From IMG/VR virus record IMGVR_UViG_2778261009_000005, positions 1 through 43,253 of that record: a DNA stretch of 43,253 bases; one strand, given 5' to 3'. The notes under the pieces are model-generated. The model saw only the letters and a program-made list of their open reading frames with translations, was not told where the DNA came from and did not search any database. Source of the stretch: a virus. Its lineage: Duplodnaviria > Heunggongvirae > Uroviricota > Caudoviricetes. This document shows positions 33,921-37,224 of the stretch, in pieces. Both the position numbers and the translations under genes were made by a program. The stretch's first letter is position 1; every line of letters begins with the position of its first letter.

Positions 33921-33948
33921 ATTACACTAATAAATTTATTAGAGCAAT
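33921..33948. promoter_or_regulatory. Two overlapping C1 operator-like sites forming a near-palindrome (Op72-like, ban operon)
   Basis: ATTACACTAATAAATTTATTAGAGCAAT: a 15/17 site and a 17/17 site sharing the central AAATTT. Confidence 0.65.
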
Positions 33949-35957
33949 ATACCTAAAACGTCATGAGCTACACCTCGAGTGTCCCCCTTACAAGACACAG
34001 AACGTCTGGCAAAAAGAGGTTCCACTCTGAAGCCATTGTCATGATAAAGCTCTCTGATGTTTGGCGCGCCACTATTAGTAATGAGAACCTTTGCACCTCG
34101 GCGATGAGCATCCGTCAACAGAGACACCAGGCGTTTTTGCTCTTCAAACTTAAAGTCATGACCGGAATAGTTCGTGAATCCCTCTGTATTTGGAAGCGGT
34201 TCATATGGCGGATCGCAAAAAATGACATCTCCTTCTCCGGCAGCTTCAATCACCGCAGCAAAATCACCACATACAAACTCAGAACGACCTTCCGCACCGA
34301 GGAAGGCTTCCATCTCCTGTAATGGGAAATACGGAGTTTTATACTTCCCATAACCGACATTGAACTCACCGGCCTGGTTGTAACGCGTCAATCCGTTAAA
34401 ACAATGTCGGTTCAGGAACAAAAACGCCGCTGCGCGATGTAAATCATCATAGACTTGTTTGTTAAACGCATTCCGTACTGCTAGGTATCCTTCCTGTGTG
34501 TTGTAGTCCTGGAAAAACCGATGCGCCAGAGTGATAAGTGAACGTTCCTCACGTTGCAAAGTCTTGTAAAAGTTAATCAGGTCAGCATTCACATCATTTA
34601 GCAGATTTTCCTTGTATCCGGCATTCATGAAGACAGCTCCGCCACCGACAAAAGGTTCAATCAGGCGCTTCCCTTCTGGCAAATAGCGAAAGATTTGTTC
34701 CAGAACACCAAATTTTCCACCAGCCCATTTGAATATGGACCGTTCGAATTCTGCCGCTGGTTTAACTTTTCGCTCTTTTGTTTCATTCCCTTCATTCTGC
34801 CGACATGCAGCCTTGGTAATCCGATCGCCAATCCAGCGCATTACTGGTATCGCCATACTATTGCCGATCGCTTTGTAACGCGGTCCGTCAGCTGCAAGCA
34901 TCGCGGCCTCTTCTTCGCTCAAATCAGGATAGTTTTTGCGAAGGTATGCCAGTTCATCTGAAGAAACTTTTTTACGCTTTTCCGTAGGGATCAATGTATG
35001 TCCATCAGGAAAACCTTGCAGCCTTTCACATTCGACAGGGGTAAGACGGCGCATTCTACCGTCGCCGAGCAATACAATTGGTGCTTCATGGTTACATGTC
35101 AAAGTTGGTGCCGAATTATCGGTTTTTATCTCAGCCCCTCCTTGCCCATGTGCCATGGCAATTATGTTTGTATCATCGCAAGTTCTGATAGCGATGTTTG
35201 AAGTATATCTGGTAGTTTCCTTCCCCTCGCCTCTGCTCGGCGCAATATTCCGGCGCACGCCTTCGAACTCAAAAAGTACCGTTGCGGGATCGAGGTCTGT
35301 TCGAGCACTTGCGACAACAAACACGCGTCGGCGTCGTTGTGCCACTCCGAAGTATTGGGCATCAAGGATTCTCCAGGCCACTTTTCGCTGCGGTCCATAA
35401 ATACAACCACACTGCGGCCACTTTGGAGCATGGCAACCGGTTTTGACATCCCACCGCCAGAACGCGTTACTTTTTCCTGATTCAGGTCGATCACCTGGTT
35501 CGAATGGCGCATCTTCTCCAGCCAATCCGGCAAGGAAACATCCGAAGGCGTTATCTGCCGATGACAAGACTCCTGGGACATTTTCCCAGACGATAACTGC
35601 TGGTTTGAGAAATGACTCAGCCCGTTTGTCGTCAATTGCATTTGCAAGCTCCACATACTTTAAAGTTAGCGCGCCACGCTCATCATCAAGCCCACCACCT
35701 AATCCCGCGATACTGAATGCCTGACAAGGTGTTCCCCCGACGAGCACATCAGGGGATTCGATTTCCCCAGCCAGGACTTTTTTGGCAAGTTTTGTCATGT
35801 CGCCAAGGTTGGCGACATGGGGCCAGCGGTGCGCAAGAACGGCTGATGGAAAAGGCTCGATTTCAGCAAACCACGCCGGACGCATACCCAACGGTTCCCA
35901 GGCCATACTCGCGGCTTCAATTCCACTGCAAACAGATCCATAGCACAGCTCTTTCAC
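33939..35957 (-). CDS. dmt: Bifunctional DNA methyltransferase: N-terminal C5-cytosine MTase domain fused to C-terminal Dam-like N6-adenine MTase domain
   Basis: 672-aa ORF; C5 motifs GGTPCQ, ENV, QRRR, GNS in the N-half; Dam-type EPFVGGGAV and DPPY in the C-half. Confidence 0.85.
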
Positions 35958-36859
35958 TGCTTAGCCTCTCCGCCAAGGGCATTTACCAGAGCATCAACCA
36001 GGCACGAAATTTCACTGGTCAACAGGAAGAAATCTGCGTCCAGTCGCTGCGCAACATCTTCACTATCAATATCAGAGTTCTGCTCAAGCAATTCATCCGC
36101 AAATTTGACGCTGGTAAGGCTGAAGTTATGGTCCAGTGTAAATTTAATGCGGTTCTGCCAGTCGATTGCCAACTTAGTGACGAGCTTGCCAGCTTCCAGG
36201 TGTGTGGAAATTTCATCGCTTCCCAAATCCTGCTTTTTCACTCGGGCAATACCGCCATCCTCAAGCACTGCCTTAAGTTCTGCCGCATCCCCCATTTGAA
36301 ATCCCTGTGGAGCACTACCATCACGTACCCAGTCGGTCAGCGTTAATTCAATGGGATTTTCAACACTCAGGGGAACAACAGGAAGAGAACCCAGAGACTT
36401 ACGCATAAGCGCGAGCATATCTTCTGCCTGCCGCGCGCTGGCATTGATATAGATACGTTTAGTTGAACCGTCGTAGATCGCCTGGATAACAGAAAACTTT
36501 GAAAAAGCCCGTGGAAGAAGAGAATGCAGAACTTCGTCTTTCAGGGAGTCCTTCTCTGTTTTCTTCAGTTTACGCGCTTGTTCTTGCTCAAGTTTTTCAA
36601 TTTTTTCTTGAATAGCTCGCTGGATAACCGGCGGGGGAAGAATTTTTGTTTCGCGCTTTGCTTCAACAAGGATAAAACCATTTCCATGCATAGCGATAAC
36701 TTCGGAATTATCACCAAATGGCGATACAAAACCGAACTTGGCCATATCCTGACTACCGCATGGCGTGAAAAGGATCATTTTCTTTTTATCTTCTAAGTCG
36801 GTCAGATCCGCCTCACGAGAAAGTTTATAAATAGTAATGTTTTTCCAGTGCTTAAACAT
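35954..36859 (-). CDS. rdgC: RdgC-like recombination-associated protein
   Basis: About 301 aa from ATG at 36857-36859 ([16 protein letters not shown]...); [35 protein letters not shown] and [14 protein letters not shown] match E. coli RdgC as remembered; track ORF 35954..36973 has an upstream alternative start. Confidence 0.75.
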
Positions 36860-37136
36860 GTTGTAACCCTTGAATATCAACCACAGAAAGCTCGTCTTTG
36901 TAGAAAAAGGCCAGGTTGTGGCACCCCCTCGTTTGAGCGTATGAGCTGGGACCAATTTCGTTCTTCCAGACAAATGGCTTCAAATCCGTACGGCGAAGCA
37001 TAAAAACGCGATTTGTTCCGCTCTGATTCCCAATGAGGCAAAAGCCTTCTTTCACCTTGATAGCCTGCAAGTTGTCGAGTTCACCGCTGGTTACACGGCT
37101 ATCGAACTCCTTGCGGCTTATTAGCTCCATCTGCAT
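36852..37136 (-). CDS. Hypothetical small protein, first gene of the C1-controlled dmt operon
   Basis: ORF in track 36852..37208; internal ATG at 37134-37136 with GGAG ribosome-binding site preferred because the TTG at 37208 overlaps the operator. Confidence 0.35.
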
Positions 37137-37207
37137 CTGACGACTCCAAACAAATGCCCATTGAAGGGCGATGGCTGAATGGTACCGAAAACACGACATA
37201 AAAAACA

Positions 37208-37224
37208 ATATTTATTAGAGCAAT
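37208..37224 (-). promoter_or_regulatory. C1 operator-like site upstream of the dmt operon
   Basis: Minus strand ATTGCTCTAATAAATAT, 16/17 match. Confidence 0.6.

Follow-up and report, generated by a model that had tools for sequence, protein, structure and literature searches.

The segment running from position 37224 down to position 33939 on the minus strand is almost certainly the uhr-hrdC-dmt operon of a P1/P7-type phage-plasmid (Punavirus). It lies in a window of 43,253 nucleotides, the whole stretch of DNA that was analysed, and nothing contradicts the P1/P7 assignment. The operon is ordinary P1 backbone that has been annotated for two decades, and its arrangement is already known. The only real difference between the window and P1 is a sharply bounded cassette in the recognition region of the C5-cytosine methyltransferase half of Dmt, the single site of polymorphism within an operon that is conserved elsewhere. 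The coordinates of the features are collected in Table 1.

The DNA comparisons leave little room for another identity. When positions 33500-37700 were compared with phage records by megablast, the full 4.2 kb was matched with 96-98% identity by P7 and by five further records of P1-like phages, and P1 matched with 98% identity over 96% of the region; P1 and eight further phage records cover this 96% in two or three pieces. In PLSDB, the IncY plasmid pMCR-1-P3 (NZ_KX880944.1; pig, China) is 100.0% identical across the 4.2 kb, and its RefSeq annotation lists the same three genes. The operon is thereby found in hundreds of public records, one of them 100% identical. The gene order points in the same direction. 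The P1 record is annotated in the order Odmt (former Op68), Pdmt, uhr, hrdC, dmt, Oban, tRNA genes and ban, and the P7 record has the same layout under partly different names, with dmt called 'dam', uhr called upf64.0 and the operator called Op(dam). The synteny of the window, Odmt(Op68)-Pdmt-uhr-hrdC-dmt followed by Oban and the tRNA/ban operon, with upfC/upfB on the upstream flank, matches both; among these neighbours, upfC carries a PAAR motif and ban is DnaB-like.

The initial annotation had described a C1-controlled operon with a small leading ORF, a translationally coupled RdgC-like gene directly upstream of the methyltransferase gene, and a 672-aa product with a C5 N-half and a Dam C-half, and all of these features are borne out by the comparisons. 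Its tentative suggestion that the two domains are reversed in P1 Dmt proved mistaken: in P1, PF00145 is N-terminal and PF02086 is found at residues 493-725, and the Dmt proteins of the window, P1, P7 and MH422554 are colinear. The proposal of a new module, consisting of a Dcm-Dam fusion reversed with respect to P1 Dmt together with an rdgC gene absent from P1 at this position, has practically no chance of being right in view of this colinearity, and in P1 as well as in P7 the same operator is followed by uhr and hrdC in the corresponding position. Since the domain order is that of P1 and hrdC occupies the same position in P1 and P7, the operon is ordinary backbone. The description of it as an anti-restriction and recombination-control module is a reasonable functional guess, and corresponds to the standard, so far hypothetical view of the P1 operon and not to a new one.

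Table 1. Features of the uhr-hrdC-dmt region, in the order of the minus strand (positions are those of the window)
Feature	Position	Strand	Basis
Monovalent C1 repressor operator Odmt (former Op68), ATTGCTCTAATAAATAT	37208-37224	-	16/17 to consensus; identical to annotated P1 Odmt and P7 Op(dam)
Sigma-70 promoter Pdmt	37179..37208	-	-35 TTGTTT at 37203-37208, -10 TACCAT at 37179-37184; transferred from P1 annotation
uhr, 94 aa	36852-37136	-	Gene and position as P1 uhr / P7 upf64.0; full-length phrog_2213 match
hrdC, 301 aa, RdgC family	35954-36859	-	PF04381, NCBIfam and 2OWL matches
dmt, 672 aa, predicted bifunctional DNA methyltransferase, P7-type allele	33939-35957	-	GTG start; Pfam and alignments
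C5-cytosine methyltransferase half of Dmt, aa 1-400	34758..35957	-	PF00145 from residue 8, E 3e-35; TIGR00675 above cutoff
Target-recognition (variable) cassette, 61 aa, one TRD module	35053-35235	-	Sharp breakpoints in DNA alignment
Dam domain of Dmt (D12 class, N6-adenine), aa 411-643	34029..34727	-	PF02086 E 9e-57; FVGGGAV and CDPPY motifs
Bivalent C1 operator Oban (former Op72ab) of the downstream ban operon	33921-33948		Two overlapping matches, 17/17 (-) and 15/17 (+); P1/P7 annotation

The regulatory region follows P1 closely. C1 operators are 17-bp asymmetric sites with the consensus ATTGCTCTAATAAATTT, and the whole window contains 14 matches with at most three mismatches, against 0.28 expected by chance. 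The Odmt site is placed on a promoter, as in the C1 operator class of P1, and the -35 hexamer of Pdmt abuts it with an overlap of 1 nt. In the 181 bp around the operator there are five differences from P1, every one of them upstream of the operator; from the operator itself as far as the uhr start the two sequences agree completely, so that the P1 annotation of Pdmt is transferable to the window. The annotated hexamers are weak, and a simple promoter consensus scan of the window missed this promoter. From the P1 annotation and the sequence identity, we infer C1 control of the operon: in the lysogen, C1 bound to Odmt would sit against the -35 element of Pdmt and the operon would be silent, and upon induction or infection it would be transcribed early.

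At the downstream end, Oban contains the last dmt codons and the TAA stop, as in P1. The search for the DicF-like RNA that is annotated downstream of dmt in P1 gave, with Rfam at the gathering threshold, only three tRNAs. A hairpin resembling a terminator lies at 33739-33758. Separately, the late promoter LPdam2 has been predicted inside P7 dam; its sequence is conserved in the window, and it has the status of a prediction only.

The three genes are tightly packed. The overlaps that permit translational coupling are directly visible in the sequence: uhr and hrdC share 8 nt (ATGTTTAA), and the hrdC stop overlaps the dmt GTG start by 4 nt (GTGA), so coupled translation of uhr, hrdC and dmt through these overlaps would be expected. 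Both upstream genes are shorter than their maximal ORFs. For uhr the length is 94 aa and not the 118 aa of the maximal ORF, and the start codon of hrdC is the ATG at 36859, in agreement with the P1, P7 and RefSeq annotations, and not the TTG of the 339-aa maximal ORF. Uhr gives zero Pfam or NCBIfam matches, even at E 1. The PHROG label 'nucleoside triphosphate pyrophosphohydrolase' was not adopted for it, being a label without independent support.

HrdC is assigned to the RdgC family. PF04381 is matched with an E-value of 2e-97 and 326 bits (cutoff 25), and the match covers positions 3-298 of the 298 in the model. The equivalog model NF001462 of NCBIfam is passed with 378 bits against a cutoff of 330, and NF001460, the best-matching model, is reached with 419 bits, below its cutoff of 501. 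Furthermore, residues 5-300 match the structure of E. coli RdgC (PDB 2OWL) with an E-value of 5e-113; the homology is full-length and the two proteins have the same length, although HrdC, in contrast to its E. coli relative, is phage-borne and repressor-controlled. E. coli RdgC is a ring-shaped DNA-binding dimer that restrains RecA. Judging from this homology, HrdC probably binds DNA and restrains RecA as RdgC does, and it would in this way temper RecA action on replicating phage DNA.

As for Dmt, the window carries the P7-type allele. Against P7 Dam and MH422554 Dmt the window protein shows 96-97% identity, and against P1 Dmt 90%, the difference from the latter being confined to the recognition cassette. 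The P7 protein (AAQ07538, 'dam', 672 aa) has the same length, the same short cassette and 96% protein identity; P7 also shares the operator (Op(dam)), the gene order with hrdC and upf64.0, and the gene overlaps, and differs from the window only by scattered point differences, e.g., R87G and I18M in the window. P1 (Dmt YP_006537, 754 aa) has the same operon and domain order and an identical operator/promoter region, with a Dam half and a C5 catalytic core near-identical to those of the window. It differs by a cassette of 143 aa between C5 motifs VIII and IX, compared with 61 aa in the window, and, in the reference sequence, by G74W in motif IV.

Both halves of the window enzyme match the models of their families. 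The Dam domain scores above the curated cutoffs (PF02086, 193 bits vs 22; TIGR00571, 249.6 bits vs 114.85). For the C5 half the best solved relatives are M.HhaI and M.HaeIII, and the translation aligned with M.HhaI has motifs IV (PCQ, with the catalytic Cys), VI (ENV), VIII (QxRxR), IX and X in canonical order, with the variable target-recognition domain (TRD) between VIII and IX. The catalytic motifs are intact in both halves, including GNS in the C5 half and FVGGGAV and DPPY in the Dam half. In P1, Dam methylation is needed for pac cleavage and dmt is required in dam- hosts (PMC12707154, citing Sternberg and Coulby 1990). The role of GATC methylation is thus established for P1, and for the window Dmt we infer the same: its Dam half would methylate GATC, making the pac site cleavable and allowing growth in dam- hosts.

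The C5 half is where the window and P1 part ways. In the DNA alignment, near-identity to P1 extends up to ...AATATTGCGCCGAG and resumes at CGCCGTCTTACCCC...; between these borders the sequences are unrelated, with 183 bp in the window vs 429 bp in P1, and the Dmt proteins of the window and P7 are 82 aa shorter than that of P1. The cassette coincides with the variable stretch that separates C5 motifs VIII and IX, the site of the target-recognition domain in C5 methylases. By phmmer, the window module aligns with the M.HhaI region GQGERIYSTRGIAITLSAY, including the conserved TL dipeptide, and has PTL at this place. With regard to the specificity of the module, the solved structures gave only generic similarity to M.HhaI and M.HaeIII, and the other phage methylases in which the module was found by tblastn include none with known specificity. 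Taking into account that all catalytic motifs are present together with one short TRD module, the C5 half most likely methylates one short motif; by adding 5mC at this single motif, it would shield phage DNA from some restriction enzymes.

The window cassette is not an unusual allele, as both alleles are common. A 351-bp probe covering the cassette together with its flanks matched 492 PLSDB plasmids. Of these, 257 carry the P1-type cassette and 184 the window-type cassette, the latter kept at 95-100% identity; about 50 carry something else. Yet another allele is found in the Dmt of phage SJ46 (807 aa), where the module of the window is embedded among others.

A different view of these data would be that the C5 half is carried along in a decayed or inactive state, that only the Dam half matters, and that the cassette difference is the remnant of a deletion. 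Several observations lend themselves to this view. Position 87 of the window Dmt is Gly (AGLGGGLD), where 109 of 113 relatives have Arg, and this R87G change, located in the catalytic-loop region after motif IV, may reduce C5 activity. The C5 activity of P1 Dmt is annotated only as 'perhaps', and the P1 reference protein has WGTPCQ at the site where all 116 of the 116 relatives scored have GGTPCQ. Moreover, dmt is non-essential in the laboratory, uhr, hrdC and dmt all being dispensable for P1 lytic growth by CRISPRi (PMC10695390). Against decay, however, stand the six of six intact catalytic motifs in an open reading frame, and the short cassette is no truncation of the P1 cassette but a different sequence with sharp borders. 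Its conservation across the 184 plasmids speaks in the same sense, and the module recurs in many longer arrays of distant relatives, which argues for selection on function. An inactive C5 half is accordingly regarded as improbable, and an active C5 half acting on a single motif is retained as the preferred reading for the window. For P1 itself the situation may be different: the laboratory reference may have a C5 half that is defective through G74W, and, if so, this would explain why the C5 activity of Dmt has stayed 'putative'.

The observations that follow bear more on the Dmt family as a whole than on the window itself. When the C5 half was used as a query, many enterobacterial phage or prophage relatives of 416-695 aa were retrieved. 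Some of them have a PF02086 fusion, others a fusion to PF05869, the other Dam family, and still others are unfused. From these, the region between motifs VIII and IX was extracted and scored for 15 recurrent short modules, which are regular-expression definitions and not the product of formal clustering. In nearly all of the modules the core is T/C/P-L, following the pattern xTLxA. They occur in numbers of one to seven per protein, in varied combinations and orders, which gives 52 architectures among 88 proteins; in this set module B is over-represented, as the relatives were ranked by similarity to a query that contains it. P1 Dmt has at least two modules, J and C. The window Dmt has one recognisable module (B), with a spacing of 89 aa between motifs VIII and IX, and is therefore not a multi-TRD enzyme, if at least two tandem modules are taken to define this class.

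In the multispecific C5 methylases known from Bacillus phages (SPR, phi3T, rho11s and SPbeta), one core is combined with several self-contained TRD modules. The Dmt relatives resemble them in having one catalytic core and a VIII-IX region composed of T-L type TRD modules (two to seven in the relatives). The Dmt family differs from the Bacillus phage enzymes in being enterobacterial and often Dam-fused, and the window Dmt differs further in having one module, so that it would be at most monospecific. The multispecific Bacillus phage enzymes are mentioned in a review (PMC12707154), and no description of a modular TRD or of TRD polymorphism in Dmt, or of enterobacterial enzymes with several TRDs, was found in the searchable literature, a scope outside which REBASE and Lobocka et al. 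2004 fall and may record it.

On this basis a model can be put forward, tentatively and with somewhat less than even confidence. The recognition region may be a freely recombining array drawn from about 15 or more short 'TL' modules, and P1-like phage-plasmids may change or extend the range of their 5mC protection by exchanging cassettes at two fixed breakpoints, one about 30 aa beyond motif VIII and the other at motif IX. The window allele would then be the minimal, one-module form, and the P1-type, P7/window-type and other alleles would represent alternative anti-restriction specificities. The cassette may set which host restriction systems are evaded by P1-like phage-plasmids, which often carry resistance.

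An alternative emphasis, which we consider unlikely as a complete account, though clearly less so than an inactive C5 half, places the main role of the operon in epigenetic control of the phage cycle (timing of pac cleavage, oriR/GATC sites, timing of late genes) without anti-restriction, and has HrdC serve replication and not recombination control. It has points in its favour, since pac cleavage is the established phenotype of P1 Dam methylation (PMC12707154), and the P1 record annotates five GATC sites in the oriR/incC region adjoining the operon. GATC is also not depleted in the window, with 178 sites observed vs 169 expected. Such a role nevertheless leaves unexplained the fusion of Dam to a C5 methylase whose recognition region is polymorphic and can be exchanged, and polymorphism of this kind is the expected outcome of diversifying selection imposed by host restriction systems. 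The epigenetic and anti-restriction roles are not mutually exclusive.

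The motif IV segment of the C5-cytosine methylase half of Dmt, which carries the catalytic Cys, differs in the P1 reference (NC_005856): at codon 74 it reads VLVWGTPCQ, in contrast to GGTPCQ in the window and in all 116 relatives scored. As judged from this substitution, the C5 half of laboratory P1 Dmt may be impaired in activity, which could explain the "perhaps" attached to C5 activity in the P1 annotation. Past motif IV, in the catalytic-loop region, residue 87 of the window protein is Gly (AGLGGGLD), as it is in the identical plasmid pMCR-1-P3, while Arg occupies this position in 109 of 113 relatives.

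In some P1-like relatives, dmt is interrupted by a 341-aa Hint + LAGLIDADG intein. The junctions in these genes, GGTP|CFTAG...VVHN|CQAFS, make the catalytic Cys of C5 motif IV the +1 extein residue. The window dmt carries no intein at the matching site (35724-35726). Phages of Mannheimia, Propionibacterium, Lactobacillus and Mycobacterium have related inteins (27-48% identity) in their C5 methylase genes.

In other phages or prophages, the same C5 core is joined to an adenine methylase of the PF05869 family, which replaces PF02086 (e.g., the protein-search relatives P0046, P0099, P0104 and P0116). The occurrence of both partners implies that C5-plus-N6A fusions either arose more than once or swap their C-terminal partner.

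Features of dmt, its flanks and its intein-bearing relatives (window coordinates unless an accession is given)
Feature	Position	Strand	Remarks
SPFH/Band-7 domain gene	31254-32081	-	PF01145, E 2e-30; between ban and tRNA genes
tRNA-Ser(tga)	32562-32648	-	ARAGORN; missing from P1 and P7 annotations
Strong terminator-like hairpin	33739-33758	-	GCCCATCTTCGGGTGGGC + T run; dmt and Oban lie ~180 nt upstream
Residue 87 of Dmt	35697-35699
Normal Gly codon of motif IV	35736-35738		Equivalent of P1 dmt codon 74
upfC	37306-37590	+	Transcribed divergently from operon; weak match to PAAR-motif PF05488, 26 bits vs cutoff 27
Intein-bearing dmt relatives	FO818745 72480-73502 (RCS47)		P0030, P0034, P0080; phages RCS47, vB_EcoM-Ro157c2YLVW and P1 OP279344

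The surroundings of the hairpin beyond dmt (33723-33824) correspond to the stretch called "dicF-like region" in the P1 annotation; DicF was not found there at the Rfam gathering threshold. Further along, the tRNA-Ser(tga) prediction is doubtful, because the Rfam tRNA model remains below its gathering score at 32562-32648. The place of the SPFH/Band-7 gene is taken in P1 by tciA-tciB-tciC, upl and plp, whereas the related phage record MH422554 and pMCR-1-P3 exhibit the same swap as the window. On the other side of the operon, the weak PAAR-motif match of upfC agrees with the RefSeq label in P1.
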